Source: Candidatus Sumerlaeaceae bacterium
Lineage (GTDB): Bacteria > Sumerlaeota > Sumerlaeia > Sumerlaeales > Sumerlaeaceae
Direction: 5' to 3'
Assembly (NCBI GenBank): GCA_049968255.1
Contig: JBMFRB010000003.1
Span: forward strand, 199,385 to 263,384
DNA: 64,000 nucleotides
Below, one piece after another: positions 5,994 to 58,052 of this stretch (within the stretch, counting starts at the first letter, position 1; each line of letters starts with the position of its first letter). The notes below the pieces were generated by a model. It worked only from the letters and a program-made list of their open reading frames with translations. It did no database searches and had not been told where the DNA came from. A program made the position numbers and the translations under genes.

Positions 5994-6037
5994 GGGGGCG
6001 CATTGAGGATTCTGGCTCAGCGCCCCCTCTCTTTGTG
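5994..6037 (+). terminator. Putative rho-independent terminator downstream of the EF-G paralog
   Basis: GGGGGCGC ... GCGCCCCC inverted repeat (8-bp GC stem, 18-nt loop) followed by TCTCTTTGTG. Confidence 0.4.
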
Positions 6038-6165
6038 AGCAAAGGGTTGTAGACACGGCCGGTTTGCAGCGCAAAAGTTGGCATTGCATCGAAGCACTTG
6101 GTTGCACTAGACCTCTGTGGACGTCTCATGCACCAGCGCAAAAAAGTGGGTCCAGGCACTTCGTC

Positions 6166-7437: not shown

Positions 7438-7447
7438 GGTCAGGACA

Positions 7448-8599: not shown

Positions 8600-8675
8600 G
8601 CGCTTGACTCATGGGTCTGGCGTCCGCGCTTATTTTGCGATCCGATAGGACACACCAAATCTAGCGAGGTTTTCA

Positions 8676-9095: not shown

Positions 9096-9171
9096 GAGCC
9101 AAACGCTCGCGCACGCCATGATGAAATTGTCCTTGGACGGCTAAAGCCATTGTGACAAACTCGCAGTTTAC

Positions 9172-11901: not shown

Positions 11902-11907
11902 CCGTGC

Positions 11908-12477: not shown

Positions 12478-12480
12478 GAC

Positions 12481-12900
12481 TCACTCTCCCCCTCTTTCTG
12501 CAACGACTTTGACAAAGAACTTTCGCTGACGGGGGCCGTCGAATTCGCAAAAGAACACACCCTGCCACGTACCAAGCACGAGGTGCCCTTTGTGAACGAT
12601 GAGAGTCTGCGATGGGCCGATGAGCGAGCATTGGACATGCGAATCGCTGTTGCCCTCGCTGTGGGCGTAATCGTCCTCATGGGGAACAAGACGCCCAAGC
12701 ACCATGCCGAGGTCCTGCACAACGTCGGGATCGGCGTGTTCGTTGATCGTAATGCCGGCCGTCGTATGCGGGCAATAAACGACACAAATTCCTTCACCCA
12801 CCTGGCTAGCCGCCACGGCTTCACGCACTTGGGCTGTGATGTCCACAAATTGCCGCCGCGATGTTGTTCGAATCGTGTACTCTTTCATCGTTAGCTTCAA
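12481..12900 (-). CDS. YjbQ/UPF0047 family protein (secondary thiamine-phosphate synthase-like)
   Basis: 139 aa. Conserved YjbQ motifs (VVYCPHTTAGITINEHADPDVVQD ... HEDDYAHSEGNSDSHVQ...GTWQGVFFCEFDGPR). Confidence 0.75.
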   Translation of the reverse strand: MKLTMKEYTIRTTSRRQFVDITAQVREAVAASQVGEGICVVYCPHTTAGITINEHADPDVVQDLGMVLGRLVPHEDDYAHSEGNSDSHVQCSLIGPSQTLIVHKGHLVLGTWQGVFFCEFDGPRQRKFFVKVVAERGGE

Positions 12901-13070
12901 CGCACACTGTTAGTATATGGCATGATGAAAAATCATGCGAAAATTGCCAATGGGCAAGCACTAGGCAGCACTTCTTGACCAATTGTCGCCGAAGGCAAGA
13001 ATGCACGAAAAAACGAACTTTTGTGAGATTGTGCAAAAAGAGCGCTGGGCCCCGAGGAGGGATAACGAAC

Positions 13071-14075
13071 ATGACAGAATTGATGCGTGCCATGGTTCTG
13101 CGCAGATGTGGTGAGCCACTGGAGCTTGCTGAGATTCCTCGGCCAACGCCAGGACCGGGGCAGCTCCTGGTTCAGGTGGAGGCGTGCGGGGTGTGTCGCA
13201 CAGATCAGCACATTGCTGACGGTGAGCTTGCGGAACCGCCTCGTTTGCCTCTCGTACTCGGACACGAAGTTGTGGGGCGCATTGTGGAGCTAGCTCCTCA
13301 GGTCGAGGAATTTACCATCGGCCAGCGCGTTGGAATTCCCTGGCTAGGCTCAACGTGCGGACGCTGTTGGTTTTGTGTCCACGAGCAGGAAAATCTGTGC
13401 GACAATTCTGTGTTCACCGGCTACACGCGCGATGGCGGCTATGCGCAATTTGCTGTAGCCGACGCGCGCTATTGTTTCGCTTTGCCCGTGCATCTGGATG
13501 CTGTTCACGCCGCACCTCTGCTCTGCGCGGGGCTTATCGGTTTTCGCTCATATCGTTTTGTTGGCGAACATGCCCAGCGCATCGGTTTCTACGGCTTCGG
13601 CGCCAGCGCCCATATTCTTGCGCAGCTTGCGGTGGCCCAGGGACGCGAAATTTTTGCGTTCGTACGGCCTGGCGACGAGCAGGGACGCCGCTTCGCACTC
13701 GAACTCGGTTGTGTTTGGGCCGGTTTTAGCGACGAGCCGCCGCCATGCGCTCTCGATGGGGCGATCATCTTCGCACCCGTTGGCGCGCTTGTGCCCGCAG
13801 CACTCCGCGCGGTGCGAAAAGGCGGGGTCGTGGTCTGCGGCGGCATCCACATGAGTCCCATCCCTTCTTTCCCCTACAGGGACCTTTGGCACGAACGTGT
13901 GATTCGCTCCGTGGCAAATTTGACGCGCAGCGACGGCCTCGACTTTTTCAAAGCGATCGAGAACGTGGCGATCCATACTCACGTCCGCCCGTATCCGCTA
14001 GAGCAAGCTAACGACGCGCTTGACGCTCTGCGGCACGGCCAACTCACTGGCGCGGCCGTGTTAGTGATGCCGTGA
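13071..14075 (+). CDS. Zinc-dependent alcohol dehydrogenase (MDR family)
   Basis: GVCRTDQH catalytic zinc motif, structural zinc Cys cluster (CGRCWFCVHEQENLC), Rossmann GxGxxG (GFGASAH). ATG at 13071 (MTELMRAMVL) preferred over the ORF-track start 12861. Confidence 0.8.
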   Translation: MTELMRAMVLRRCGEPLELAEIPRPTPGPGQLLVQVEACGVCRTDQHIADGELAEPPRLPLVLGHEVVGRIVELAPQVEEFTIGQRVGIPWLGSTCGRCWFCVHEQENLCDNSVFTGYTRDGGYAQFAVADARYCFALPVHLDAVHAAPLLCAGLIGFRSYRFVGEHAQRIGFYGFGASAHILAQLAVAQGREIFAFVRPGDEQGRRFALELGCVWAGFSDEPPPCALDGAIIFAPVGALVPAALRAVRKGGVVVCGGIHMSPIPSFPYRDLWHERVIRSVANLTRSDGLDFFKAIENVAIHTHVRPYPLEQANDALDALRHGQLTGAAVLVMP

Positions 14076-14229
14076 GGCCGAGCAACATGCAAAAGTGTTC
14101 GAACGGCGCTTTGTGTGCTAAGTGGCTAAGCGAGGGCGCAGCGCCGCGCGCGTTGCTGCAGATGCTTTTCTCCGCTGATTTATACCCAGCGCGGATAAAT
14201 TCCGTGCAGTCGATCCTGCGTCGTGCAGT

Positions 14230-15138
14230 TTACGTCTCGCGCTGAGGGGGAGGGATGCGCCGGCCTCGCGCTGCAGCAAAAAGCCATCGGATTTCTTCAA
14301 GATTGGGACTCGACGGCGTCTCCGTCACCATCGGCAGACCGCGTAACGTGTGATCGCGAAGCAGTCGGCGGAATGCTGCTTCACCGATCATCCCTCTGCC
14401 GATATGTTGATGGCGGTCCACGCGCGTCGCACACGCGACCTTCGAGTCATTGAGATGAAGGGCCACAAGCAGCTCGCGCCCAAGAATGGTATCGAAATCA
14501 TGCCAGAGGCGGCGGTATCCCTCAGCAGTTCGGATGTCGTAGCCGACAGCGAAAACGTGTGCGGTGTCGAGGCACACGCCCAGGCGCGACCGGCACCGTG
14601 CACGTCGGAGCATCTCACGCAATTCACGGAAGTCAGCGCCGAGCGACGTTCCTTGGCCCGCCGTTGTCTCGAGGAGAATGCGGCAGCGTCCGCGGCCAAC
14701 GGCACCGACGATCTCATCAAGCGCTGTAGCAACGCGCTCGATGCCAACCTCAACGCCATCGCCGCCGTGCGCCCCAGGATGCACCACAAGCGCGTCAAGT
14801 CCGAGGACCTCGCAACGCTCCAGCTCGTCAACAAGATCAGCAATCGTCTTTTCGCGTAGCACCGGATCACTGGTAGCCATGTTAACAAGATAAATTGAAT
14901 GAGCAATGACAACCTTGATGGGCGAATCACGTCGTGCCTGCCGAAATAGCTCGGCCTCTTTCGCATCCAGTGGCGGAAAGTCCCAGCGTGTGTTGCCCTT
15001 GACGAAAATTTGGATCGCTGTGCACTCATGAGCAACGCCGCGTTCAATGGCTTTGTGCACGCCACCGGCAATGCTAACATGAGCGCCGATGAGCAGTGGC
15101 GCTCCGGCTTCGGAGCCACGAATGTTATTTGCTGGCAT
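14230..15138 (-). CDS. nfo: Endonuclease IV (AP endonuclease, Nfo)
   Basis: LIGAHVSIAGG near the N-terminus, TIM-barrel metal ligands (HPGAH, ETTAGQG, CLDTAH, HLNDSK). ATG at 15138. The long ORF to 15369 is upstream read-through. Confidence 0.8.
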   Translation of the reverse strand: MPANNIRGSEAGAPLLIGAHVSIAGGVHKAIERGVAHECTAIQIFVKGNTRWDFPPLDAKEAELFRQARRDSPIKVVIAHSIYLVNMATSDPVLREKTIADLVDELERCEVLGLDALVVHPGAHGGDGVEVGIERVATALDEIVGAVGRGRCRILLETTAGQGTSLGADFRELREMLRRARCRSRLGVCLDTAHVFAVGYDIRTAEGYRRLWHDFDTILGRELLVALHLNDSKVACATRVDRHQHIGRGMIGEAAFRRLLRDHTLRGLPMVTETPSSPNLEEIRWLFAAARGRRIPPPQRET

Positions 15139-15850
15139 CCAGGATCTCCCTGGCGCGTTGCCACACCGCATCGAACATTGGCTCCGTGAGGCGCTTGGTC
15201 GAAGTGTTTTGCTGGCTTGGGTGAAACGAGCAGAGCACACGGGGAGCACGAGCCATGTGAAACTCTGCACTGTGTGCGAAAGTGTAATCGTTGATCCGCA
15301 GATGAAACCCGCGCCTGCGCAGATGCTGCAACCACCAGGCAAAAGCCACACGTCCGAGAACGACGACACAGCGAAGCCGTGGCCAAAGGATGCTGACCTC
15401 GCGTTCGAGGAAAGGCGAGCAGTTGGCGATTTCCCCTGGTGTAAGCTTGTTCTGCGGAGGGGCGCAGCGCGCCACTGCGCTCACATAACAATCGCGCAGG
15501 ATAAGTCCGTCGTCACGCGACACGGAGGCCGGCTGATTAGCAAAACCTGCCCGGTAAAGTGCACGAAAGAGCCACTCGCCCGATCGATCACCGGTGAAGA
15601 TGCGTCCCGTGCGATTGCCGCCGTGCGCTGCGGGTGCTAGGCCAATCACGAGCAGACGCGCACAGGGATCTCCAAAACCTGGCACAGGCCTGGCCCAGTA
15701 GCCTTGCCCGCGAAAGCGCCGCGGTGGCTTCGTGGCAACTGCTTCGCGCCACGCGACAAGGCGCTCGCACTGTCGGCAAGAAATGATCTCTTGCGTCAGC
15801 GCCGCCAATGCGGTCGCTTCTGATTTTCCACACTCGCAACGTCTGTCCAT
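15125..15850 (-). CDS. Uracil-DNA glycosylase, family 4 (Fe-S type)
   Basis: C-x2-C...C Fe-S ligand arrangement (CRQCERL, RCAPPQNKLTPGEIANCSPFL) and GLAPAAHGGNRTGRIFTGD motif typical of family-4 UDG. Overlaps nfo start by 14 nt. Confidence 0.75.
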   Translation of the reverse strand: MDRRCECGKSEATALAALTQEIISCRQCERLVAWREAVATKPPRRFRGQGYWARPVPGFGDPCARLLVIGLAPAAHGGNRTGRIFTGDRSGEWLFRALYRAGFANQPASVSRDDGLILRDCYVSAVARCAPPQNKLTPGEIANCSPFLEREVSILWPRLRCVVVLGRVAFAWWLQHLRRRGFHLRINDYTFAHSAEFHMARAPRVLCSFHPSQQNTSTKRLTEPMFDAVWQRAREILDASK

Positions 15851-16036
15851 AGGCTTTGCTTTACTTGCGTGGAACAATTCTCTTTTTACACGCAACAATC
15901 TCTCGTGCGTTTTGTTGCTCCATCCATGCCCGAGCTGCTCGCATGAGACGCGTGTTTGGCGGTATATGCGTGAATCGAGGCCTGCAGCTGACGTCAGAAT
16001 TGGTCCGAGTGGCCTTAGCCTGGTGCAAGGACGACG

Positions 16037-16405
16037 ATGACGCCTACCCCTGATCGTAGAGCGAATTATGAGCTAAAGGAATTCGTGTGTGCGCGCTGCG
16101 GCAATTGTTGCCGCGGTGAGGGAATTGTTCGCGTGAAGCCCGACGAGGCGATGAGCATAGCGGCATTTCTTGGTCTTTCGCTCGACGAGTTTTATGCGCA
16201 TTTCACGCGCGATCCCGAAGATCCCGGCGATGCGCAGCAAGGCATCCGCTGGCTGATCGACAAGCCTGGGCCGCTGCGTGAATGCATTTTTCTCGATGGC
16301 AACCTTTGCCGCGTTCATCCTGTGAAACCAGAGCGGTGCCGCGCGTTTCCGCTCGCGTGGCGGACCCCCGACATCCTCGACTATTGCGTCGGCATGCAGC
16401 AGTAG
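16037..16405 (+). CDS. YkgJ-family (UPF0153) zinc/iron-chelating CxxCxxCC protein
   Basis: 122 aa. CARCGNCCRGEG cysteine cluster near the N-terminus, C-terminal CR...C...C. Confidence 0.65.
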   Translation: MTPTPDRRANYELKEFVCARCGNCCRGEGIVRVKPDEAMSIAAFLGLSLDEFYAHFTRDPEDPGDAQQGIRWLIDKPGPLRECIFLDGNLCRVHPVKPERCRAFPLAWRTPDILDYCVGMQQ

Positions 16406-16518
16406 CAACCCCATGGCCCTGCGCGCCTCTTATCTCAGCGCTTGACAACCGACAGTGCGCGCAGCGTTTGCGGAACAAAGGTTTTGCACGAAGACGTGGA
16501 GAAAGCAGGCGCAGCACG

Positions 16519-16818
16519 ATGAAACACTTTATAGTGGAAGTCATCTATAAGCAGCCGTTCGAGAATTTTGGCGATGCCGTCGCGCAGCACCGAGCCTATC
16601 TCGACAAAGGCTACGCCTGTGGAATGATTCTTTTTTCAGGACCTCTCGTGCCACGCCTGGGCAGCATTTTTGTGGCCCGTGCAGAGAGTGCGCAAGAGCT
16701 GGCAGACTTTTTCGAGAACGATCCCTATCGAACGCGCGGCTTAGCGGATTTCCGCTTTGTTCAGTTTGACCCGACGCGCTACATTCCTGAACTTACCGAG
16801 TGGTTCGAAGAGGGATAG
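16519..16818 (+). CDS. YciI-like protein
   Basis: 99 aa from ATG 16519 (MKHFIVEVIYKQPFENFGDAVAQHRAYLDKG...). YciI-like ferredoxin-like fold signature. The upstream Arg-rich extension of the ORF was rejected. Confidence 0.65.
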   Translation: MKHFIVEVIYKQPFENFGDAVAQHRAYLDKGYACGMILFSGPLVPRLGSIFVARAESAQELADFFENDPYRTRGLADFRFVQFDPTRYIPELTEWFEEG

Positions 16819-16960
16819 AGAGCGAGAGCGCAGCGCAGCAAGCCTTCACGCATGACACCGCGAAAACATCTGCACAATCAGGCTCAGGCAATGTAGAGTT
16901 CAAACAGTAGCGCATCATGCAAGCCAACAAACTCACGCGTTTCGATAGGAGTGTGCAGCG

Positions 16961-17857
16961 ATGAAATCGCGCCTTGTCGTTGCGGCAGCGATTCTGGGCT
17001 TGGCGGTTTCAGGGAGCGCTCATCCGCCTGTCGTTACTTTTTCCAATGACGATGCAGCCCGTGCTATCGCCATTGCCTGCAAGTCCGATACGTATAGTCG
17101 CGCGCCAGTGCACGTGCATCGCAATGTGCCGGGCAACATGGTCTACTGTGTATCGGAGGATCACAAAGAGGGCGTGCTTTATTCCGAATCAAGCATGTGC
17201 CATGAGCTCACCTCCGAGACACTCAACGTCTGGCGCAACGAAGATGGCGATGTGGCCGCGCTTCTAATCCAGCGTACAGAGGGGCGGCTTCTCATGATCG
17301 GCGAGGCCGAACTGCGAGGCAAACGATTCGATGTTGAGCGCACCGGCACATATTTCATCGTCTCGCAAGGCAAGTTCACACAGCTTTCTGCCGCTGTGAA
17401 GCCATACAGGGTGCTGCATGTTTTTGAGAATTTCGACGGCAAGCGAATCTTTGCGCGCAAAGGAGACCTTGTCGTCATAGGCGATAATTTGCTCACAAAT
17501 CAACTCGAGGCGCGGATTGTGCAAATCAAGGACGACCGCATTGGCGAGTTGCCGCCACAGCCGGTTGCGAACATGCCGGCTGGTGTGCGTGTGTTAGATT
17601 TTGCGGAGTCTACAAATGATCTGCTCGTTGGCGGGGTTGATCCGCAGGGGCAAACGCTTTTTGCCGTCGTGAATCTCCAAACAGGCGAATCGTCGGCGAT
17701 CGCTCCGAAAAAAGACGGCGACGATCAGGCAATGTTTCTGAGCGATGGCAACATTCGAGCTAAATTGAGCGGGACATCTGGCGCAGCTGGGTCGAAACGC
17801 AACCCCAAAACAGGCGATGGCAAGGACGGTGCAAAGTTCCCCTTTAGACTTTTCTAG
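16961..17857 (+). CDS. Hypothetical secreted protein
   Basis: 298 aa. N-terminal signal peptide (MKSRLVVAAAILGLAVSGSA). No recognisable domain. Good coding compositional look with no competing frame. Confidence 0.5.
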   Translation: MKSRLVVAAAILGLAVSGSAHPPVVTFSNDDAARAIAIACKSDTYSRAPVHVHRNVPGNMVYCVSEDHKEGVLYSESSMCHELTSETLNVWRNEDGDVAALLIQRTEGRLLMIGEAELRGKRFDVERTGTYFIVSQGKFTQLSAAVKPYRVLHVFENFDGKRIFARKGDLVVIGDNLLTNQLEARIVQIKDDRIGELPPQPVANMPAGVRVLDFAESTNDLLVGGVDPQGQTLFAVVNLQTGESSAIAPKKDGDDQAMFLSDGNIRAKLSGTSGAAGSKRNPKTGDGKDGAKFPFRLF

Positions 17858-19660: not shown

Positions 19661-19838
19661 TTTGTTTTCCCCCTGATAAAAGCGCATTCGCAAGCGAGAG
19701 AGGTCTGTGAGCTGATCCCTACGCTCACATGGGCAACACTTCACATTGTGTAGCCCGAAAAGTGCAAGCGAGTTTTTATTGGGCACCTTGGGTAGGTTGA
19801 GTAAAAACAGGTTTATGGAATTTGGGCGAGGCGAGGGC

Positions 19839-20696
19839 ATGGACGAAAAAACAACGTGTGCTGCGAGCGATGAGCCAATAGGCTCGGCAGGTATGCGCAG
19901 GGACGACAAACTGTCGCTGAGGCGGGCTTTTGCATGGCAATCGCTGGTCTTCGCAATTGTCTATGCGGTACTAGTTCTCGTGCTCGGTGAGCGGCGCAAG
20001 TTTGAGGACGCTGTTTTGACCTGGGGCGACCAAATGCCCATCGTGGCCGTGTTGCGCGACGATGTGACCGAGAAGCAGGCAAACGCCTTGGTCGAAAAGC
20101 TGCGAAGCCAGGTCAAAGGGTTGCAATGCACGGTAATCGGACGACGCGAAGCACGCTCGCTGCTTGCGCTGCAGGAGCCATGGCTGCAGCACCTTCCGGA
20201 AACGCTCGTCGGTGAACTCCCCAGTGTGCTGGAACTGCGTCATCCGGCTTTGTTCCGCTCGGCACAAGAACTCGATGCGTTTTTGAGTTTTCTGCAGGCG
20301 CAGCGCGAGGTGGACTTTGTTGTCTTCAATTCCGTCGGTCACGACCGGGTGATCGAGGCCCTCTCCATGACTCGGCGCCACTTGAACGTCACACTGGCTG
20401 CAGTGACGGGTTCACTTATTATCTTGTTTGCTTTAGCGCATCATTTTGTGATTCGAAGCCGCCGTGCTTTGTCAATGGGGCGCAGGCTGGTGTTTGCCCT
20501 CGGGGTTTGGATTACAGGTGTGCTCGGAGGAGGCGCAGCGCTCTGGGCGATCGAGCAGTTCGCACTGAAAGCCGCCGAGTCGCCGCTTGGCCTCTTCCTT
20601 TCGGTGGGAGCCCCTACGAGTCTATTTCTCATTGCGTTGCTTGTGCTCCTCGAGTTGCTCGAGATGGGAGTGTGGGAAGACCGTGGGCGCGCGTAG
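19839..20696 (+). CDS. ftsX: FtsX-like cell-division ABC transporter permease
   Basis: N-terminal TM after a basic stretch (RRDDKLSLRRAFAWQSLVFAIVYAVLVLVL), large periplasmic loop, three C-terminal TM helices (LAAVTGSLIILFALAHHFV...). Start 19839 or 19893. Confidence 0.7.
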   Translation: MDEKTTCAASDEPIGSAGMRRDDKLSLRRAFAWQSLVFAIVYAVLVLVLGERRKFEDAVLTWGDQMPIVAVLRDDVTEKQANALVEKLRSQVKGLQCTVIGRREARSLLALQEPWLQHLPETLVGELPSVLELRHPALFRSAQELDAFLSFLQAQREVDFVVFNSVGHDRVIEALSMTRRHLNVTLAAVTGSLIILFALAHHFVIRSRRALSMGRRLVFALGVWITGVLGGGAALWAIEQFALKAAESPLGLFLSVGAPTSLFLIALLVLLELLEMGVWEDRGRA

Positions 20697-25604: not shown

Positions 25605-28600
25605 ATGGGCATTTATTCCGAAAAGGTTATTCGCGATCTCAACGAGCAGCTCGATCCGCGGGCTGTGCTCGAACTCATCAATTATCACTCGGACAAGTTG
25701 CAAGAAAGCGGCGAGACGTTACGCGGCTTTTGTCCCATTCATCGCGAAACGGTGTTCCGGACACTCATTATTGATAAGTCCAAGCGCACGTTTCGCTGCA
25801 TGTACAGCTTGTGCAAAGGCGCTGCGGGGGGCACGCTTGTCGAGCTCTACGCATTGGCGCAAGATATCCCGCTCGAAAAAGCGGTCGAGGAACTCGCAGG
25901 CCATTTCCAGATCGAAGTGCGAATGACCGCCGATCCTGAGTTTCTCGAAAAGCAGGCCGAAGTGGCGGAAAACTATCTCGAGCTCGGATTTTACGAAGAC
26001 GCGGAGAAGGTCCTCCGCGAGATTGTCGAAGCAGATTCAAATTACGAACGGGCCCATCGTGGTTTGCTTGAGGTCTACAAGCATCTCGGCAACACCGAAG
26101 CTCTGGGGGAGCATCATGGCATCCTGGCGCAGTTGCTCATCCAACGCGGTGAACGCTTAGCGGCCTATGAGCACGTCAAAGCCTGGGCCGAGTACCAGCC
26201 CGACGCACCCAAAGCGCATTATTTGTTAGCAGAATATCTTCGCGAGCAGGGCGACCTCGAAGCTGCACTCGAGGAATTCATGGCAGCGGCGGACCTCTAC
26301 GCTGCGAAGGAGGATTTTCAAGCGGCCATTGATGCGTACCGCCAAGCGGACTCCTTGCGTCTCGATGTCGTGGATGTCGTGCCCCATGTCCTGCAAATCT
26401 ACGAGCAGATGGGCAAGCCCACCGAGGCCGTGGCGTTTCTCAGCGAACGTGCCGAGGCGTCGCTACTTCACGCGGATTTTGCGCGCAGCGCCCAGCTTCT
26501 GGAACAGGCACTTGAGCTCGCACCTAACGACCCTTCGCTACGCGCGCGGCTTTGCGAGATTGCCATTTTGGCCGACACGGGCGGCGACTGGTTACCACGC
26601 GTTTTCGAGTGGGCGCAGTGGTTTGTCGAGTCCGGCATGCCTGAAAAAGCCGTGCAGGTCTACGAGCGCGTGCTGGGCGCGCAACCCACAAACGAGGAAG
26701 CCGTGGAGCGGCTTCGCGCGCTTTACGCAGCAATGGGAAGGACAGAAGACGCGCTTGGGTTGCGCGTGCGCGCCGCACGCGTGGCATTAGACGCAAAAGA
26801 ATTTGCGACAGCACGCAAGGAACTCCAAGCGATCCTTGAAGAGAAACCAGATCACGCCGCTGCCCTTGAGCTGCTCGCGGAGGTGAACCTAGCGGCTGGT
26901 CACCGCAAGGAAGCTGCGGACTGCCTGGCCAGGCTGGCGCGCGTGTGTGTCGCGAACCGCGATTTTTCTAAAGCGGTTTCGCAGATGGAGCGCGTTCTTA
27001 GCCTGGTGCCGGACGATCCCCGCTTCTTGCTCGATCGCGCGGAAATTCTGGAAAACTGGGCAAGCACAGGCAACGTCCGCGCGCGCCAGCAGGCAGTAGA
27101 GGCATTTGAAGCGCTCGGCGACCGTTATGCGCAGACAGATCCGCAAAAAGCGTGCGACATGTATCGGCGCTCCGAGGCTTGCGCTCCACCATCAGCGCAA
27201 TTACTGCTGAAGCAGGCACGCTGCCAGGCAAAGCTGAGGGCTTTCGATGCGGCGCGCGAATATCTCCAGCGCGCTTGCGACGAACTTGTCGCGGTAGGAC
27301 AGCCAGACGTCGCAGTCGAAGCAGCACGCGAAATCGCGGCAATGGCCCCGCACGATCATGGCCTCCAGCGTTATCTCATCGAGCTGCTTGAAGTGATCGG
27401 CCGCATTCCTGAAGCCGTCGAGGTGGCTATGCTGCAAGCGGACGCGGCCGCTCAACGAGCGGAAAAGGAGCGTGTGTTCGAGTACCTCAATTATGCACTC
27501 GCTCTGGACCCGGATCATATACCCGCCATTGAGGCTCTTGCGCTCCACTATCACGGCACAGGCGATATCGCCAGCTACTGCGACGTCTTACTGCGTCTGG
27601 CGAATGCGAACGAGCAGCGCGGCAATATCACAGGGGCCGTGGCTGCTTTGGAACGGGTGGTGGATGAGCGTCCCGAAGATGTGATGGCGCTGGGACGTCT
27701 GGCCAATCTGCACCTCAACCTTGGAAACGCCGCGAAGTCCCGCGCTTATCGGCTAGAATTGGCACAAATTCACCATCGGCGCGGAGCTCTGGAATCCGAG
27801 CGCGAGATACTGCGGGCGCTGCTGGAGGAGGATCCAGAGGAGGAAAATGTTCTGGCGGCCCTCATCGATTGCGAGTTTGGCCTGGGCAATCGCGAGCAAG
27901 CCTGTGCGCGTGCGGTCGAGCTGGCTCGCTTACAAATGAAGCGCGGTTTTGCAGCTCAGGCGCGTACCACGCTCGAGAAGGCGATCGCGAAAGAGCCCGA
28001 TGATCTCGGCGTGAATCGCCTGCTCTTTGAACTAGTGCGCCAACTCGGCAGCGCGCAGGAAACCGTCGAACGCGGCCTCCACCTTGTCGAGCTACTTCAG
28101 CTTTACGAGCAGTTGGACGACGCAGTCGCTGTTTTCGAGCAAACGACGGAGGCTGATCCAAACAACTTCGAGTTGTTTCGCAAGTATGTCGCGTTTTTGC
28201 GCGAGATTGGGCGCACAGAGGAAACGCTTGAAAAGCTCTTTGCCATCGCGCGGCGGCTGCGTGCAAGCGGCCAATTTGAAGAAGCAGAAAAAGCACTGCT
28301 CGAGATTGAGCAGTCACGTCCGCTGGACATACCCGAGCTCGAAGAAGCTCTCTCGCTCTACGAGCAGTGGGGCAAGCCCGAGCAGTTTGCACAGCGTGCC
28401 ATTGAGTTAGCGCGCACCTATGAAACGAGTGGCCAGGACAAAAAGACGTTGACTCTTCTGCGGCGCGCACTCAAGGTGACGAATGGTCATCCGGAGGTGC
28501 GACGCGAACTTGCGGAAGCTTATGCGCGGCAGGGGCGTCCGGCTGATGCGGTGCGCGAGCTTGTGCAACTGGCCGACGCCTTTGTTGGGGCTGGCAAGCG

Positions 28601-31600
28601 CGACGACGAACTTGAAACACTACGGCGCGCTGTGGCACTGGTGCCGACGGAACGCCAAGTGCGGTTGCGCCTAGTGAATGCTCTCATTGAGAGAGGCGAT
28701 CGTGAAGCGGCGGTCCTCCAGCTCGAGGATCTCGCAGCCGCACTCATGACGAGCAAAGACTATGAGAACGCGCTCGAAGTTCTCAACCGGATCATCGAAG
28801 AATTTCCCTCGCGCCTTGGCGCACGACGCATGCGGGCAGAGGTCTACTCCGCATTGGGCCAGAACAAGGCTGCGCAAGAGGATCTCAATGTCTTTTATGT
28901 GAAAAGTTTGCTCCGCCAGGCGGATGACTATCACACGAAAAACGATTTCACACGCGAGGCTGCTACCCTTCGCGAGGCTCTAAATATTATTCCATCAGAC
29001 GAAGAACTCCTGCGTCGCATTCGCTCAGTAGAGTTTGAGGCGGGCGAACTCGATCGGGCGTGCTCAACGACGCTCGAATTAGCTAAGCTTTTGACCTGTC
29101 AGAATCGTCCCGATGATGCGCTGGAACTGCTGCGCGAAACGCACACGCGGGTGCCAGACAACCTTGTCGTTGCTGAGCAGTTGTTCGAAACGCTTGCAGC
29201 GAGGCGTTTGAACGAGGAAGCCGCGATGCTGGGAGAGACGCTTGCCGAACTCTACCGTGCCGCTGGCGAGAGCGGCAAAGCCCTCGCTGCGTTCAGTAGG
29301 GCTGTGGATCTTGCCTCGGATAGCGAGCAGGCGCGCCTGCGCTTCGCCCAGTTCCTCGAGCGCGCCGGTGAAACCGCCCAAGCGGTGGCGACATATTTGG
29401 CCTTGGCACGGCAAGCCATTGAACGAAGCGATTTGAGTTTGGCTCAAGTGCACTACGAGCAAGCTTTGCGTATCGACCCATCGTGCGTGCCTGCGCATGA
29501 GGGAATGGCCGAAGTGGCGGCACGTCGCGGCAATCACCCAGAGCAAGCGGTGTGGCTACAAAAACTTGCCGAGATTTGGGTCGGCCAAAAGGCCACCGAA
29601 GAAGCCATCGACGCTTTGCGTCGCGCAATTTACGCAGACCCCAGGCGAATAGATCTGCGGCAGCATCTCATTGAGCTGCTGGAGAAAGCACAACGGCCAG
29701 CCGATGCTGTGGCAGAGCTTCATGCGCTGGCCGATGTGCTGACACAGGAAGGCCGCCAGGCCGAAGCGCTCGCGGCCGAAGAACGAGCTGTAGCCTTGTG
29801 CCCAAAAGATCCGAAGTCGGCTCGGCGTCTGGCGGAAATGCTTATCATGCTCAACGAAGTCGAGCGTGGTGTGAATGAGTTCGAACGGCTCAGCGGCCTG
29901 TATGCGGAGCTCGGCGAGTATCCGCAGGCGCTAGCTGTGCTCGAGGAAGCACAAACGCTTGCGCCGGCCCGCCTAAGCGTGCGCCGATTGAAAGCCGAGA
30001 TCTACGAGCGTATGGGCGAGACCGCCCAGGCTGAAGAGGAACGTCGCCAGTTCGAAGTGGCCAAATCGCTGCAGGAGGCAGAAGTCGCTCGCGAGCGCAA
30101 CGACTTCAAAGCTGAGAAGCGGGCGCTGCGCAAGGCACTCGAGGTGGCCCCTCAGGATGAAGGCGTGTGGCTTTTGCTCATTCGTTGTCATCGCGACCTC
30201 GGGGATACTCAGGCCGAGGTGGATGCGTATCTAAAATTGGCGGAAGTGCAGCGTGAGAAACACGGGCTCGAGAAGGCTATGGCCACACTCGAACAGGCGT
30301 ATGCCCAACAGCCGAATGAAGAGCGCCTTGTGCAGCGCCTGTTCGAGTTAGCGCGCGAGCGTCGCGACGACGTCGCCGTGCGCCGATATGGCGAGCGCCT
30401 CATCGAGCTAGCACAGAACAGGACGGACGCAGTCGAGCGCACCATCACGGTGTACGATGAGCTTCTGAGTTACGCTCCGCTGGATGCTGATCTCTATTTG
30501 GAAGCGGCTGATCATTGTGCTCGTGTGGCGCGTCCGGCCGAAGCGCTAGAGCGACTTCATCGGGGCGCGGACCTGTTCGCAGAGGCTGAGCGTTGGGCTG
30601 ATGCCGAGCGGCTTCTGCTGCGCACCCTCGAGATGAACCCCAAATCCACCGAAAGCCTTGCGCGATTGGTGCGTCTTTATGAGCGCGTGGGACGTACGGA
30701 TGAATTCGAGCGGCGGTTACTGGAACTGGCCAAAGCTTACGACGAAAACGGCGAGCGTCCCCATGCCATCGAGACCGTGCGCCGCCTCACACTCGTCTCT
30801 CCAGACAATGTCGAGGCGCGCCGGTACTTGGTACGTTTACTCGCTGCTGCGGAACAAAAACATGCAGCCATCGAGGAACAGCTCGCGCTAGTTTTCCTTC
30901 TTCGCCAGCAGGGAGCGCTTTCGGACGCCGTGGAGGCAGCACGCGATGCCGTGGCTATGAGCGAAGGCAGCGACCGTGCAAGGCGAGCTCTGGCCGAGTG
31001 CTTGTTGGCCGCTGGAAATACCGATGCAGCAAACGCAGAACTGGAGGATCTCGCAAAATCATGCGTCGAGCGAGGTGACCTGCAGGAGGCGTTGCAAGTG
31101 CTCGACGAAATCATTGAGCGCACCCCCCAGCGCATGAGCACTCGTGTCCTGCGTGCCGAAGTTTACGTGAAGCTCGGTCAGGCCGAACGGGCGCTCGAAG
31201 AGTATCGTCAGATATCAACCGCAGTAGCGGCTGGAGCCATGACCTCAGTGGCCGCACCGAGTGCACCCGCCATGCCCTCGCTGCAGATTGTGTCCGAATA
31301 CGATTTCGAGCATTTCGTTGTGGGGGCTAACAATAATTTCGCCTATGCGACCGCCCTTGCCGTGGCACGTGCCCCAGCGCAAGCCTATAATCCGCTGTTC
31401 ATTTATAGCGATGTGGGACTCGGCAAAACGCATCTTGTGAACGCCATCGCCAACCACATTCTTCGCGAGAACCCAAACGTCCGCATCATCTACACAAATT
31501 CGGAGGACTTTACGGCTGAAGTCGTCGAGGCTATCCAGACCAACACAATCAACCAATTCCGCGCGAAGTACAAATCCGTGGATCTCCTGATTGTGGACGA

Positions 31601-44909: not shown

Positions 44910-47744
44910 TTGCTTAGGAAAAACGGTGCCATGGCAGATCATCGGAAGGAGGATATATTGGGTTCGGGCGCCGGCGCTCACCGCAACGAAGAGATAAGCT
45001 CCGAAGCGCCGACAGTGGAGCGTGCCACACCGGCGGACCTTGCCGCACCTGTCGAGTGGGCACGGGCTTTGCGCTCATACATCCCCACGCTGAAAATCGC
45101 CGAAGGAGGTTTCAGCGAAATTTGGGAAGCCGTGCAGGTAGAACTTGGCCGTGTGGTAGCCATCAAGCGCCTGAAGAAGCGTACGGACAAAACCGGTAAA
45201 CCCAGCCCTATCGCCCCGCGTCATATCACGATGTTTCGCCAAGAAGCAGTCGTTGCGGCGCATCTCGAACATCCAAACATCCTTCCCGTCTACGACCTCG
45301 AATACGATGCGGACGGCTTGCCATTTCTTGTCATGAAACGCGTGCGTGGCGAGCCCTGGGGCCAAGTGCTCAACCGCGATTTCGACACACTTGCTCCGCG
45401 AACATTTCTTGCCAAGCATCTGCCGATTCTTGTGGCGCTTGCGCGTGCTGTGGCCTATGCCCATTCCGAAGGCATTGTCCATCGCGACTTGAAACCCGCG
45501 CAGGTGATGATTGGGTCCTTCGGCGAAGTACTCCTCATGGACTGGGGACTTGCGATGGCCTATCCACGCCGCGTGGACGATCCCGACGCGCCACCATGGT
45601 TGCGCGACCCCAACGCCCCCATCAATCGCCCGCTCAATCCCGCGGGTACGCCCACCTACATGGCGCCCGAGCAGACTGAATCCACCGTGCACAAGCTCGG
45701 CCCCTGGACCGATGTCTATCTGCTCGGCGGCATTCTTTACCGCATTCTCACGGGCAGTCCACCGCACGTGGGCGCAGATGGCAGCAGTACCTTTAGGCTT
45801 GCCCAAGCCGGGATTGTGGAACCGCCCACACGACTTGCCCCAGGGCGGGAGATGCCACCGGAACTCGTGGAACTTGCGATGAAGGCGCTCGAGCCCAAGC
45901 CAGAACACCGCTTGCAGAGCGCGGAAGAATTTCTCCAAGCGTTGGAAGATTATCTCATAGGTGCCGACAAACAGCGCGAATCGATCCTGCTCGCCATCAG
46001 CGCTCGCGATAGGCTTGCTGATTTGCAGGCGAATTACGACACGCTGGCAAACGCCATCAACTTCCTTGAGCGCGCGCTGGTGCTCTGGCCGGATAACATG
46101 GAGGCCGCACAATGGCGGACTGAGGCGATCAAACGCTACGCGCGTCTTGCTATAACGAACAAAGACCTTAAACTGGCGCGCGTGCAAGCGGAGCGGCTGC
46201 CTGAATCCGATGAGCGGGCACAACTCCTCGACGAAATCTCGCGACTCGAGGCGATAGAAAGCCAGCGCGACGCCGAACTCGCCGTTGCGCACGAGCGCGT
46301 GCGCCAGGAGCGCAACCGCGCCGAGCACCTTGTCATTTTCCTCGTCGGCGACCTCACGCGTCAGCTCCGGCGCATCGGGCGTGTGGATATTCTCGCAGAC
46401 CTATGCCAACAAACGATCCAGTATCTGGAGAAACTTGCCACCGAGGATGAAGCGCCCGCCGTCTTGGTCGGCCGTGTCCAGGCATTTCTCAACATCGCGG
46501 ATGTGGAGTTGGCTCGTGGCGATTCCGAGCGTGCCGCCCAGGCATGCCATCGTGCGCTAGAACTGCTGGCAAAAATTCCGTCGGAGCAGATTGACCTTTT
46601 GCAGCGGGAACTGTTTCGCGCCGAGTCGTGGAGACGGCTCGGTCATATTGCCTATCTTCAAGGCAAATACGACCAAGCCAAAACGGCTTACGAATGTGGG
46701 TGCGAGGCTCTGAAAAGCGCATCCGGGGTAGCTATTCCTGTTGCGGAGAAAGAAGCTTCCATGGCCATGCTCCTCCACGGTCTGGGAATTGTGTTATGGC
46801 GGCAACGGCGCTTTGAGGAGGCACTTGCTTATCACATTGAGGCAGAAACGCTCATAACGCGCTTGTGCCGCACCTTTCCCTCGAGCGAGCCATACGTGGA
46901 GACGCATGCGTCAGTTTTGGCGACTCTCGGCAACTGTTATCGGGACCTCGGCGAGCTCGAATTCGCGATATCGGTCACACAGGAAGCTCTTCGCCTGTGG
47001 GAACGACTCTATCGCTTGGATATGGGCAACCTGTCGCGTCTCAGCAACGTGCTGTGGGTGCGAAACAATCTGGCGTTACTCCTTCTTCTCAAGGGGGATC
47101 AGAGCGGGGCCAAATCGTTGTTCCTGGCCAACCGGGATGCGGCGTCACGCCTGATCGAGCACGATCCCGAGAATCTTCAGTACGTGCGCGATCTGGGCTT
47201 CGCCCTGAGCATCGCAGGAGAGATCAGCTACATGCAGGGGGCGCTGGAGGAAGCCCGCGCCCTGCTTCAGGAAGCCTTGGTTGTCGCCAAAGAGATCCTC
47301 AGCCGAGAACCAGAATCCATTTATGCGGGCAATGGAGTTGCCCGTGCGCATGGGCAACTCGGAGAAGTCTTGCTTGCGATTGGCGATCAGCCTGCAGCCA
47401 CAGATCATCTGCGCGCGGCACGCGATAAGTCCGGCGCTATGCTTGAGCGCGCACCTGAAAACATCAACGCAGTGAAAACGTGGGTGCGCGCGACACTTTT
47501 GCTCACGCTCCTAGGCAAAGCTCCCACCACCCCGATGGAAAAATTGTACGCCGAGGTCCGCCAGTCCCTCTCCCAAATTACAGCGCCATGCGATGAACTC
47601 GATCGCTGGGATAATGAAGCCGCCTTCGCTCTGGCCTGTGGCGATCTGGATAAAGCCCGGGAGTTCATGGACAAGCTTGCCAAGCGAAACTGGTTGGCTC
47701 CCGCACTTGTCCGACTGGCCTGTGCTCAGGGCGGTCCTGCTTGA
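44910..47744 (+). CDS. Ser/Thr protein kinase with C-terminal TPR-repeat domain
   Basis: Hanks kinase subdomains (VAIKRL, HRDLKPAQVMI, DWGLA, GTPTYMAPEQ) followed by about 550 aa of TPR-like repeats. Confidence 0.8.
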   Translation: MLRKNGAMADHRKEDILGSGAGAHRNEEISSEAPTVERATPADLAAPVEWARALRSYIPTLKIAEGGFSEIWEAVQVELGRVVAIKRLKKRTDKTGKPSPIAPRHITMFRQEAVVAAHLEHPNILPVYDLEYDADGLPFLVMKRVRGEPWGQVLNRDFDTLAPRTFLAKHLPILVALARAVAYAHSEGIVHRDLKPAQVMIGSFGEVLLMDWGLAMAYPRRVDDPDAPPWLRDPNAPINRPLNPAGTPTYMAPEQTESTVHKLGPWTDVYLLGGILYRILTGSPPHVGADGSSTFRLAQAGIVEPPTRLAPGREMPPELVELAMKALEPKPEHRLQSAEEFLQALEDYLIGADKQRESILLAISARDRLADLQANYDTLANAINFLERALVLWPDNMEAAQWRTEAIKRYARLAITNKDLKLARVQAERLPESDERAQLLDEISRLEAIESQRDAELAVAHERVRQERNRAEHLVIFLVGDLTRQLRRIGRVDILADLCQQTIQYLEKLATEDEAPAVLVGRVQAFLNIADVELARGDSERAAQACHRALELLAKIPSEQIDLLQRELFRAESWRRLGHIAYLQGKYDQAKTAYECGCEALKSASGVAIPVAEKEASMAMLLHGLGIVLWRQRRFEEALAYHIEAETLITRLCRTFPSSEPYVETHASVLATLGNCYRDLGELEFAISVTQEALRLWERLYRLDMGNLSRLSNVLWVRNNLALLLLLKGDQSGAKSLFLANRDAASRLIEHDPENLQYVRDLGFALSIAGEISYMQGALEEARALLQEALVVAKEILSREPESIYAGNGVARAHGQLGEVLLAIGDQPAATDHLRAARDKSGAMLERAPENINAVKTWVRATLLLTLLGKAPTTPMEKLYAEVRQSLSQITAPCDELDRWDNEAAFALACGDLDKAREFMDKLAKRNWLAPALVRLACAQGGPA

Positions 47745-55032: not shown

Positions 55033-55349
55033 CTTGTCGGGCCATCAGCTCACTGCATTTGCGCTACGTCATAGGCAATGAAATTCTTTATAGTTCAATG
55101 GGAAAATGCGAGTTTGAGCATGTGTTTTTTTGTTTTTTCGCCAAAAAAACTAGCGGATCTCCTTGGGTGGTCATTTTTATTGCTTCGAGACAAAATGTCT
55201 TTCCTAAAGAGCCGCAAGGGACCAAGTAATTACTTTCACGAATAAAAACGTTCCAAGCTCTTACGCTGATAAAGGACTGGGCTTGACGCGCTTTGTTTGT
55301 GCTCCGCTGCTTGACTCAGTTCAATTTCAGGAAAGGAAGGTTTCTCGCT
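55033..55349. promoter_or_regulatory. AT-rich divergent promoter region (GGDEF-EAL gene / fba)
   Basis: 317-bp gap, locally AT-rich (TTTTTTTGTTTTTTCGCCAAAAAAACTAGC). AGGAAGG RBS 8 nt before the fba ATG. Candidate -35 TTGACG at about 55282. Confidence 0.35.
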
Positions 55350-56381
55350 ATGCCTCTCGTTCCAATGCGGATTCTTCTCGATCACGCGGCTGAACATGGT
55401 TATGGCCTGGCCGCACTCAACGTCAACAACATGGAGCAGATCCAGGCCATTATGGCCGCGGCCGAAGAAACAAATTCTCCGGTCATCATCCAGGCGTCGC
55501 GAGGTGCACGTGCTTACAGTCAGGATGCTTACTTGCGTCACCTCATCTTGGCGGCGGCTGAACTGCATCCGCGAATTCCCATCGCGATGCACCTCGATCA
55601 CGGCAACGAGCCAGCCACGTGCTACAGCGCGATTGCCCAGGGCTTTACGTCGGTCATGATGGACGGCTCGCTCATGCCGGACGGAAAAACGGTGGCCTCT
55701 TACCAGTACAACGTCAAAGTCACTCGCGAGGTGGTGCTCGTGGCCCACGCACTCGGCGTGACCGTTGAGGGGGAGGTCGGTGCGCTCGGCGGTATCGAAG
55801 ACGGCCATGGGGCTGGTCTCGACGAAGAGAAGGCCAAGGAGCATCTCACAGATCCGACGCAGGCTGAACAATTTGTGGCTGAAACCGGTGTTGACGCGCT
55901 CGCCGTCGCTATTGGCACCAGCCACGGCGCCTACAAATTCAAGAAGCCCCCGACAGGCGATGTTCTGCGCATTGACCTGGTGAAAGAGATTCATCGCCGT
56001 CTCCCAAATACCCACCTCGTTATGCACGGCTCTTCCAGTGTGCCGCAGGAGCTCGTCGAGATCATCAACAAGTATGGAGGCGCCCTCAAACCATCGTTTG
56101 GCGTTCCCATCGAGCAGATTCAGGAAGCCATCAAGCACGGTGTGCGCAAAGTCAATGTGGACACCGATAACCGTCTGGCCATCACGGGAGCTATCCGTAA
56201 GGTCTTTGCGGAGACCCCGGAAAAATTCGACCCGCGCGATTACCTGAAGCCTGCACGCGAGGCAATGAAGGAAGTCTGCAAGGCGCGCATGATCGCCTTC
56301 GGTCAGGCCGGCTGGGCTGACAAAGTGAAGGCCATTTCGTGCCGTGAAATGATCTCCTTCTACGTGAGCAAGCAGAGCTAA
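55350..56381 (+). CDS. fba: Fructose-bisphosphate aldolase, class II
   Basis: LNVNNMEQIQAIMAAAEETNSPVIIQAS..., HLDHG, GTSHGAYKF, HGSSSVPQE motifs. ATG at 55350. TTG-extended ORF from 55293 rejected. Confidence 0.87.
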   Translation: MPLVPMRILLDHAAEHGYGLAALNVNNMEQIQAIMAAAEETNSPVIIQASRGARAYSQDAYLRHLILAAAELHPRIPIAMHLDHGNEPATCYSAIAQGFTSVMMDGSLMPDGKTVASYQYNVKVTREVVLVAHALGVTVEGEVGALGGIEDGHGAGLDEEKAKEHLTDPTQAEQFVAETGVDALAVAIGTSHGAYKFKKPPTGDVLRIDLVKEIHRRLPNTHLVMHGSSSVPQELVEIINKYGGALKPSFGVPIEQIQEAIKHGVRKVNVDTDNRLAITGAIRKVFAETPEKFDPRDYLKPAREAMKEVCKARMIAFGQAGWADKVKAISCREMISFYVSKQS

Positions 56382-56682
56382 TCCACATCGGACATGCGTG
56401 CTTTGCCGCTCAGCGCGGCAGGTCGGATGTTTCGGGGCTGACGTGCTTGGCTTCGCGGTGCCTCCGGCTAAGCGTGCCATCGCCGCGGGCGCTAGACGAA
56501 AGCGCGTTGACGCCATCGGCATTTCTCAAAATGCGTGGTCGAACGTTGCTCGTCGCATATCCTGGGCGCCGACAGTGGTGAGGGTCCAAGGATGGAGGGG
56601 TTGCGGTGACGCGCAGGCGCGAGCGCCGGCACGAGAATATTGGCGCACGTCGCGCTTGCTCACACGCCTAAGAAGCGCTTCG

Positions 56683-56985: not shown

Positions 56986-57927
56986 TCAATTCGCCTTCGT
57001 ATCGATTGGCTCCTGTGGGGAGGACCTCACAGCGCGTGGCTGTCCGTGGCCGCGAGGCCGATCGCGCGTCTCCGATTCTCTCGAGCTTTCGCGCATCGCC
57101 GCAGACTTTGTCCGCAGCGTTGACAAGAGCTCCGTTAGGTCATCGAGCTGATTCTGAACGTTTTCCAGCCGCCGCCGCAATTCATCCTGCTCGCGCTGCA
57201 AGCGGTCGAGTTGGCGCAGGGCCCCTTCGATGGCCTCCTGGCTCGTGCGTTCCTGCTGCCACATAGCACGCGTGAGCGCCCCGAACCACTCTCCGGCATT
57301 TCCAGCTTCATCGAGGCGATCGAGTTGGGCAAGCACTGCCCCGTAGTAGCGCCGCCAACGTTTTGCCATCGGAGTGCCCTCACCCTTCGTGGCTTGGTGC
57401 TCGGCAGGCGCAGGATGCTCATCAAGCTGGTCGAGCCGAAGCTTCACTTCCTGTTCAATGATGCGACGATCAGCTTTGAGTTGACTCAGAAGGGCAATAG
57501 ACTGTGTATTGAGTTCATCCTCGCGCTTGAGCACCTCGTGAAATCGTGCCAACTGCTCCGCCGCGGGCCTTTCCGAACTTCGCGCAATCTGCTCGCGCTC
57601 GCGTTGTAGCTTCATTCGTTCCTTTTGAATCGCCACGAATGCTTGCAGGTGTTTCGCGAGTGTCGGCACGCGGTGCAGCTCTTCCCAGAGATCTGCCCGC
57701 AAGCCTAAAGGATCAGTTGTCCGCCCCTCGCGCTCTAACCACATTCGGCGCCATAGAGGACCATGCCCCCCGCGTATTTGGTCGACCAACCGATCATGTT
57801 GCGCCACAGCATTGGAAGCCTCGGCACGACGCTGCGGCTCAGTCACGGGGGGCTGTGCACCGACTGCGATGGTCAAGCTCAGTGCGCCGAGAAAGAGAAA
57901 TGTCCTCCACGAATTTCGCTGGTTCAT
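56986..57927 (-). CDS. Hypothetical periplasmic coiled-coil protein
   Basis: Signal peptide (MNQRNSWRTFLFLGALSLTIAVGAQP). Gln/Arg/Glu/Leu-rich heptad-like sequence throughout. No catalytic motif. ATG at 57927. Confidence 0.5.
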   Translation of the reverse strand: MNQRNSWRTFLFLGALSLTIAVGAQPPVTEPQRRAEASNAVAQHDRLVDQIRGGHGPLWRRMWLEREGRTTDPLGLRADLWEELHRVPTLAKHLQAFVAIQKERMKLQREREQIARSSERPAAEQLARFHEVLKREDELNTQSIALLSQLKADRRIIEQEVKLRLDQLDEHPAPAEHQATKGEGTPMAKRWRRYYGAVLAQLDRLDEAGNAGEWFGALTRAMWQQERTSQEAIEGALRQLDRLQREQDELRRRLENVQNQLDDLTELLSTLRTKSAAMRESSRESETRDRPRGHGQPRAVRSSPQEPIDTKAN

Positions 57928-58052
57928 GTGCAATGCTTCCTCTCGCCGACTCTTCGGCTTCTTCGTAACAAACGAGCACAACGTGTGCCAGCCGAGCTGG
58001 TCGGTCTAAGGAGGACAGGGTGGTGGGTTTTCTTGGCGGCTTCAATGGAAAA

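Follow-up and report, generated by a model that had tools for sequence, protein, structure and literature searches.

The zinc-binding domain (ZBD) of the DnaG primase (PF01807) reads the single-stranded DNA (ssDNA) template, and to our knowledge its fold has so far been seen on primases only. The initiator DnaA (TIGR00362) comprises domain I (self and helicase interaction), a domain II linker, the AAA+ domain III and domain IV, the helix-turn-helix for DnaA boxes; DnaA with domain IV is, as far as we know, nearly universal in free-living bacteria, and its gene commonly lies at oriC and dnaN, a location that is not strictly defining. Two other kinds of protein carry an AAA+ domain of this clade: Hda, a domain-III-only relative acting on DnaA through the ATP/arginine-finger interface, and the DnaI/DnaC loaders. 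Here we describe a gene from Candidatus (Ca.) Sumerlaeaceae bacterium, of the uncultured phylum Sumerlaeota, whose 2152-residue product joins, to judge by homology, pieces of these systems: a DnaG-type ZBD, a very long tetratricopeptide repeat (TPR) solenoid and domain III of DnaA. The gene lies in a stretch of 64,000 nucleotides (GenBank assembly GCA_049968255.1, contig JBMFRB010000003.1, positions 199,385 to 263,384, forward strand), which was analysed as a whole and is called the window below. Its features, numbered from the first letter of the window, are as follows.

25605..32063 including the stop codon, + strand: whole gene of the 2152-residue ZBD-TPR-DnaA(domain III) protein (list of open reading frames)
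25605..25928, + strand: DnaG-type ZBD, residues 1-108 (PF01807, profile matches, AlphaFold2, Foldseek)
25731..25742, + strand: first zinc knuckle, C43-P-I-H46, aligned with the DnaG CPFH motif
25797..25814, + strand: second zinc knuckle, C65-M-Y-S-L-C70, aligned with the DnaG CFGC motif
25932..31244, + strand: TPR solenoid, residues ~110-1880, ~1770 residues (TPR families)
27750..28895, + strand: TPR super-repeat copy A, residues 716-1097 (self phmmer, matches to B and C at E = 4e-29 and 1e-40)
28902..30056, + strand: TPR super-repeat copy B, residues 1100-1484 (segment-against-self phmmer)
30066..31214, + strand: TPR super-repeat copy C, residues 1488-1870 (segment-against-self phmmer)
31284..31997, + strand: DnaA domain III (AAA+ core and lid), residues 1894-2131 (PF00308, PDB matches, motif alignment)
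31416-31433, + strand: Walker A, GLGKTH
31584-31610, + strand: Walker B (DDVQF)
31617-31643, + strand: B-motif arginine, equivalent to E. coli R245
31689-31709, + strand: sensor I
31731-31751, + strand: box VII, RLLSRF (equivalents of R281 and R285)
31887-31913, + strand: sensor II, NVRELKGAL
31998..32060, + strand: short lysine-rich C-terminal tail (last residues KDKKKKS), at the place that domain IV has in DnaA

The original prediction, made from the sequence of this stretch, had remarked on an N-terminal resemblance to the zinc-binding domain of DnaG, and the peptide it quoted corresponds exactly to 25605..25920, at the start of a 2152-codon open reading frame (ORF) that has AGGA 8 nucleotides 5' of its ATG. 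The resemblance was borne out by PF01807, by a family profile and by Foldseek, and extends to a whole ZBD, ribbon and helical subdomain together. In the zf-CHC2 search that had been proposed as a check, residues 1-112 alone scored 29.0 bits against PF01807 (Zn_ribbon_DnaG, E = 9.5e-7, profile positions 3-96 of 98), over the gathering cut-off of 24.9 bits; the score on the whole 2152-residue protein, 22.1 bits, was under that cut-off. PF01807 was also found independently in 38 of 42 homologous N-termini (E <= 0.01). A profile of 42 ZBD sequences, searched against all PDB sequences, matched the ZBDs of A. aeolicus DnaG (2au3, E = 2e-6, residues 5-98) and G. stearothermophilus DnaG (1d0q, E = 4.5e-5, residues 5-99) and nothing else significantly. 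The AlphaFold2 model built on the 42-sequence alignment reached a predicted local distance difference test score (pLDDT) of 89.7 and a predicted TM-score (pTM) of 0.83, and has two helices at the N-terminus, then a zinc ribbon of four strands and, at the C-terminus, a helical subdomain (element order: two helices, four strands, three helices). When this model was compared with the PDB by Foldseek, the same two structures came up (1d0q, E = 9.5e-5, TM 0.66/0.71; 2au3, E = 1e-4), all other matches being at E >= 1; among predicted viral structures, all 13 matches at E <= 1e-3 were primases or primase-helicases with CHC2 domains.

In the alignment, C43, H46, C65 and C70 (codons 25731-33, 25740-42, 25797-99 and 25812-14) line up with the four zinc ligands of DnaG, and the sequence GG-x-L/I follows the second knuckle in both. 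The difference in spacing that had been pointed out, C-x4-C compared with C-x2-C in DnaG, is real: the second knuckle carries a two-residue insertion. Across the 42 sequences C43 is invariant and H46, C65 and C70 are each 95% conserved; all ligands are kept in 18 of 20 aligned members. Moreover, the ribbon (residues 36-75) has an isoelectric point (pI) of 9.75 inside a protein of pI 5.1, and lysine or arginine is at least 90% conserved at ribbon positions 40, 52 and 64. All together, profiles and predicted fold confirm residues 1-108 as a genuine and complete DnaG-type ZBD, which probably binds zinc, to judge from its conserved ligands. By analogy with primase, this ZBD may also have the role in ssDNA or template recognition that the original prediction gave it: the conserved basic ribbon favours such a role, and the loss of the second cysteine pair in 2 of the 20 members does not.

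The protein is not a primase. TIGR01391 (dnaG) aligns at model positions 3-98 of 414 only, with 27.4 bits compared with a cut-off of 283.6, and neither a TOPRIM RNA-polymerase domain nor a helicase-binding domain follows the ZBD. Family scans detected neither a TOPRIM nor a primase polymerase domain, whether in the 2152-residue protein or elsewhere in the window, so that the lack of a primase catalytic domain holds as predicted, and TPR super-repeats stand in its place. Although it shares the DnaG fold over ~100 residues, the Sumerlaeota head is ~20% identical to the DnaG domain and forms a subfamily of its own, present only at the N-termini of TPR proteins. The term 'standalone', also applied to it, does not fit, since the ZBD is always continuous with a TPR array.

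This array was recognised by several TPR families, among them TPR_19 (E = 4.5e-92, 26 stretches) and TPR_14 (E = 4e-75, 28 stretches). Its repeat unit of higher order is a super-repeat of ~385 residues, present in three in-register tandem copies matching one another at E = 1e-24 to 1e-41, with more diverged copies nearer the N-terminus. Homologues fall into length classes of ~1360, ~1750 and ~2150 residues, steps of 385 residues for which the copy number of the super-repeat accounts. Weak NCBIfam matches of the 2152-residue protein were to SgmX, PilW and MamA-type TPR proteins.

The AAA+ region at the C-terminus is of the DnaA type. It matched PF00308 at E = 3.4e-66, and its best PDB matches were B. 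subtilis DnaA (8bv3/8btg, E = 1e-79), then T. maritima and A. aeolicus DnaA; Hda (PDB, E = 3e-9) and the DnaI/DnaC-type loaders (E = 3e-6) matched far more weakly. A match to PF01695 (32.9 bits) is a clan-level overlap beneath the much stronger DnaA match. The domain is 52% identical to domain III of B. subtilis DnaA in an alignment free of insertions and deletions, the initiator-specific region included; DnaA is represented in the PDB by 8btg, 8bv3, 2z4r and 1l8q. The Walker A and B motifs, sensors I and II and both box VII arginines are all present, as are the equivalents of E. coli V211 and R245, which we assign to the ssDNA-binding H and B motifs on the strength of established work on DnaA.

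In contrast to DnaA, however, the protein begins with the ZBD where domain I would stand, aligns with TIGR00362 at model positions 61-340 of 437 only (343.4 bits, cut-off 343.9) and stops 21 residues past the AAA+ lid, all family members stopping 0-23 residues past it; the protein therefore lacks domains I, II and IV. A split or frameshifted domain IV downstream was ruled out: the gene that follows runs on the other strand, and a hidden Markov model (HMM) of domain IV was negative in all frames. Of the properties of DnaA, the fusion thus has domain III, and lacks domains I and IV, a score over the equivalog cut-off and the oriC/dnaN location; it is ~5 times longer than DnaA and adjoins neither dnaN nor the origin.

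Hda/HdaA (TIGR03420) offers the best precedent for an accessory role of such a protein: it too is a DnaA-clade AAA+ protein without domain IV, and it acts on DnaA, not on DnaA boxes. The fusion is much closer to DnaA, however (TIGR03420, 93.3 bits, cut-off 194.8), and carries a giant TPR array and a ZBD besides; an Hda-type N-terminal clamp-binding motif was not identified, no systematic search for it having been made. The DnaI/DnaC loaders are similar in layout, with a small N-terminal module (zinc-binding in DnaI) and a C-terminal AAA+ domain of the DnaA/DnaC clade that binds ssDNA and oligomerises in an ATP-dependent manner. Unlike theirs, the AAA+ domain here is DnaA-type (DnaI PRK08939, 38.7 bits compared with 228; IS21 helper, 54 compared with 200), the zinc module has the primase ZBD fold and not that of the DnaI N-domain, and ~1770 residues of TPR lie between the two modules.

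An identical protein (P0002) is deposited at NCBI on a 396-kb contig as 'MAG: tetratricopeptide repeat protein [Ca. Sumerlaeaceae bacterium]', MAG standing for metagenome-assembled genome. Identity is 50-78% to full-length orthologues and 26-36% to shorter forms. We scanned one genome per GTDB species with exact 8-residue seeds and considered the best 80 loci. Of these 80, 8 are from Sumerlaeota/Sumerlaeia or from an unclassified 'bacterium', and all of them are fused and without domain IV: in the 8 Sumerlaeota loci more than 650 residues precede the AAA+ match (at least 1019, except in L006 at a contig end) and 1-19 follow it. The remaining 72, which come from many phyla, are canonical dnaA genes that have 95-210 residues before the match and 95-124 (domain IV) after it, ranges that leave out a few genes cut by contig ends. 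A domain IV HMM built from these canonical genes gave no match when 246 kb of Sumerlaeota DNA were translated in six frames and searched. By neighbour joining, the AAA+ domains of the fusions fall into one clade (bootstrap 100/100), and their median identity to canonical DnaAs is 48%, compared with 55% (minimum 43.5%) among canonical DnaAs themselves; by these figures the divergence is of orthologue grade, not of Hda grade. The ZBD-TPR-DnaA(III) fusion is monophyletic and conserved in Sumerlaeota, apparently with a single copy per genome.

Database records obscure this family to some extent. Automated labels vary between 'DnaA', 'DnaA/Hda family', 'AAA family ATPase' and 'TPR protein'. In the closest genome relative (L003), the gene seems split (4147-5580 and 5681-10789; a 1752-residue gene, with its first 478 codons in another frame). 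An assembly gap of 19 N lies between the parts; the split is a scaffolding artefact, which also accounts for P0006 and P0009, two 'truncated' entries in the databases. One MAG (RMH25559.1, P0010; locus L084, RFGG01000157.1) bears the label 'Candidatus Hydrogenedentota bacterium' but carries a 2601-residue protein that Ca. Sumerlaea chitinivorans has in identical form. This label, which inflates the apparent taxonomic range of the fusion family, is therefore probably wrong or outdated, and we have no evidence for the family beyond Sumerlaeota.

The head is more widespread than the fusion. An HMMER search with residues 1-120 among 1.84 billion representative proteins returned 306 clusters (50% identity), 171 of them at E <= 1e-10, and the ZBD match was always at the extreme N-terminus. 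Of 191 ZBD sequences collected, 59 carry the DnaA AAA+ domain, at least 52 are all-TPR giants and ~70 are shorter; none is a primase. The giants (2400-3700 residues; for example P0027-P0051, P0066, P0075 and P0083, of the same phylum) are TPR to the very end, without AAA+ or any other recognisable domain, which disposes of an extra catalytic domain at their C-termini, and two paralogues, P0038 and P0194, are both found in Ca. S. chitinivorans. The original prediction had singled out the pairing of the zinc module with an initiator-type AAA+ domain. Its second half stands, in that the protein does end in domain III of DnaA, with domain IV missing; a specific coupling does not, the same head being carried by the giants and by smaller classes without DnaA. 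On these matches the ZBD is the common head of a paralogous TPR-scaffold family of which the DnaA fusion is one branch, and since it caps proteins without a DnaA domain, its function is probably generic to that family.

Two of the shorter classes are marked by their C-termini. Proteins of ~320-385 residues (P0076, P0130, P0162, P0096, P0091, P0171, P0098, P0120 and P0139; locus L085, 8001-9014) share a conserved extreme C-terminal tail, '...(K/R)RISF(I/L)', and a second class of ~430-600 residues ends in '...KEFYKAFC(I/V)A.EQ'. TPR domains often bind C-terminal peptides, and one may speculate that the RISF(I/L) tails are ligands of the TPR giants.

What the fusion protein does, we infer. We tentatively propose an accessory ATPase scaffold, for chromosome replication or for other dealings with ssDNA, that would be neither a primase nor a reader of DnaA boxes, and hold this to be the likeliest role, though short of probable. 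Without domain IV, a DnaA would be unable to find DnaA boxes, and the AAA+ end would be limited to ssDNA or to a pre-existing DnaA filament. It may bind ATP and oligomerise DnaA-style, as a helix on ssDNA; alternatively, it may co-polymerise with the DnaA filament of the cell via the conserved arginine-finger/ATP interface. The basic face of the zinc ribbon would provide a second nucleic-acid contact, probably with ssDNA as in primase, and the TPR solenoid would be both a spacer and a docking platform that recruits or spaces partners. With both ends contacting ssDNA or the initiation complex, the unwound initiation complex could be stabilised, tethered or restrained.

Several observations weigh against this proposal. 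One member, P0042, has a degenerate Walker B motif and box VII, with identity in the AAA+ domain down to 29%; the two aligned members that have lost C65 and C70 (P0025 and P0026, fusions of ~1365 residues) keep only the C-x2-C. TPR arrays usually bind proteins, and the array does not itself give the partner set of the solenoid. The ZBD heads many TPR proteins without AAA+ and so need not be replication-specific. Replication genes are not adjacent, and synteny is not conserved. Finally, the canonical DnaA partner in the fusion-bearing genomes is a presumed one, although we think it likely to be there. The degeneracy of P0025, P0026 and P0042 suggests sub-functionalised or inactive branches of the fusion family.

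Much of this would be expected if the protein were a generic scaffold. The ZBD, stabilised by zinc, would then cap the protein or bind other proteins, as it would throughout a large paralogous family of Sumerlaeota TPR scaffolds, and the captured DnaA AAA+ domain would be only an ATP-driven oligomerisation switch, with nothing specific to replication. Such a role would agree with a head that caps at least 52 all-TPR giants and smaller classes devoid of DnaA, with TPR arrays being classical protein-protein scaffolds, with the weak SgmX, PilW and MamA-type matches, with a genomic context not linked to replication and with the tolerance of two members to the loss of two zinc ligands. We nevertheless consider it unlikely: the AAA+ domain has remained orthologue-like to DnaA by its median identities, including residues needed only for ssDNA binding, all known structural relatives of the head are domains with which primases read their DNA template, and conserved basic residues line the ribbon here.

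If Sumerlaeota had no canonical DnaA, the fusion would be the sole initiator, origin recognition having moved from domain IV to the ZBD and/or to TPR-bound partners. A domain III conserved with all its motifs at DnaA grade, in a phylum-wide, monophyletic and apparently single-copy family, would suit an initiator, and the Ca. S. chitinivorans orthologue AXA36875.1 was annotated by its depositors as 'Chromosomal replication initiator protein DnaA'. No canonical Sumerlaeota dnaA occurs among the best 80 loci, and no domain IV occurs in the 246 kb searched. Neither are DnaA-box 9-mers enriched over composition-matched controls: the window has 13 DnaA-box-like sites with one mismatch where 5.5 are expected, which is the 85th percentile of permuted composition-matched motifs and not significant. 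However, the genome-scan negative, obtained with 8-mer seeds and the best 80 loci, is a weak one, and DnaA-box counts tell little either way; the supplements of published catalogues contain neither dnaA nor K02313 entries. A DnaA with domain IV is close to universal, and since the fusion gene is, moreover, not origin-linked, we regard the coexistence of a canonical domain-IV DnaA with the fusion in Sumerlaeota as quite likely.

The position of the gene also argues against a sole initiator. AXA36875.1 lies at 2.40 Mb of the finished chromosome CP030759.1 (3,289,105 bp), where guanine-cytosine (GC) skew on the strand of the gene keeps between +0.055 and +0.124 throughout the surrounding 26 kb, whatever the gene orientation, which puts the gene mid-replichore, on the leading strand. 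A terminus-type (+ to -) skew switch at ~1.53 Mb, together with symmetric replichores, would place the origin close to the start of the record, where a separate dnaA may lie, and thus ~0.9 Mb away from the fusion gene; this placement comes from two 26-28-kb views and not from a whole-genome profile. A mid-replichore site fits an accessory gene better than an initiator gene. Moreover, the ZBD head is common to non-DnaA paralogues, and some members have degenerate zinc or ATPase motifs. All together, we find it improbable that the fusion initiates replication by itself. The last alternative, a chance match, an artefactual or pseudogene ORF or a cryptic primase, might be read into the whole-protein PF01807 score and the seemingly split relative, but is effectively refuted by conservation and fold evidence and exceedingly improbable: the isolated domain is above the cut-off, homologues match independently, profile and fold searches agree, the ORF is kept full-length across many genomes with the one split at an assembly gap, and the 1770-residue middle is accounted for by TPR super-repeats, with no TOPRIM or polymerase domain.

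The building blocks of this protein are all known; for their combination, ZBD-TPR-DnaA(III), we found no published description in the literature. Here the primase ZBD fold heads TPR scaffolds instead of primases, and an orthologue-level domain III stripped of domains I, II and IV suggests that an initiator can lend its ATP/ssDNA filament module to an entirely different chassis. If the fusion works beside a canonical DnaA, it would be an initiation regulator or tether of a new class, exceeding Hda, YabA and SirA in size and differing from them in mechanism. If it were instead the only DnaA homologue, a bacterial phylum would initiate without DnaA boxes, overturning the assumption that origins are read via DnaA boxes. 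On the practical side, the fusion comes within 0.5 bit of the TIGR00362 cut-off and can thus silently pass for dnaA in marker-gene or KEGG Orthology surveys of the phylum.

The window is a piece of ordinary chromosome, and the neighbourhood of the gene in it is not that of an origin. Upstream genes encode SecDF, EF-G, MutS, an M23 peptidase, UppS, CdsA, BioB and a DMT transporter; downstream follow a convergent radical-SAM gene, the gene of a ~600-residue protein and TsaE, then, among others, a glycosyltransferase, a hydantoinase, PBP1, a kinase-TPR protein, MgtE and TruB. The fusion gene has no dnaN, recF or gyrB close by, none of these origin-proximal markers occurs in the Sumerlaeota loci examined, and the window contains no tRNAs and no Rfam matches. 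An origin adjoining the gene was ruled out: the flanking gaps are only 87 and 45 bp, there is no skew minimum, and DnaA-box 9-mers are dispersed. GC skew in the window is positive up to ~34 kb and slightly negative from 34000 to 64000, so that the cumulative curve peaks near 34 kb, ~2 kb past the 3' end of the gene, where an origin would give a minimum. The orthologous S. chitinivorans region has no such switch; the one in the window may mark the breakpoint of a rearrangement or reflect the orientation of the local genes. Two DnaA-box-like 9-mers with one mismatch each, 8834-8842 (-) and 8869-8877 (+), stand 35 bp apart in inverted orientation within the 570 bp that separate an ABC permease gene from mutS.

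Conserved synteny was dropped as a functional clue, the neighbours being different at every distant family locus. The convergent trio just 3' of the gene, encoding a radical-SAM protein (373 residues), the ~600-residue protein without a Pfam match (33275..35080) and TsaE, is kept in three Sumerlaeota genomes, close relatives only; upstream neighbours are not kept. Its positions are:

window 32109..35624, - strand: radical-SAM/~600-residue protein/TsaE trio
L003, 10872-14369: the same trio
L086, 16457-19993: the same trio

In Opitutaceae/Verrucomicrobiota, canonical dnaA is found ~5 kb downstream of uppS-cdsA (L024, L030, L035, L041, L042, L045, L050, L051, L054, L056 and L061), and in the window and L003 this gene pair precedes the TPR-dnaA gene by 1.7-2.5 kb. 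Positional orthology was considered and rejected as coincidence: the pair is absent at the other Sumerlaeota loci, and unrelated phyla show accidental overlaps of the same kind (TsaE, GT1).

Some minor observations concern other genes. In CP030759.1 (L083, 1,521,355-1,549,160), the gene of the 2601-residue ZBD-TPR giant P0038 (locus 10001-17806) is convergent with the rpoA/S4/S11/S13 operon and sits exactly on the terminus-type skew switch, a position that may be coincidental. In the window, a 944-residue Ser/Thr protein kinase fused to TPR repeats, a further signalling protein of this genome that is rich in TPR, is encoded at 44910..47744 (+), and ORFs of 298-428 residues without a Pfam match lie at 16961..17857, 19746..20696, 55236..56522 and 56986..57981. 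An AT-rich spot (38% GC) occupies 55081-55280, between a GGDEF-EAL gene and the 428-residue ORF of this set.

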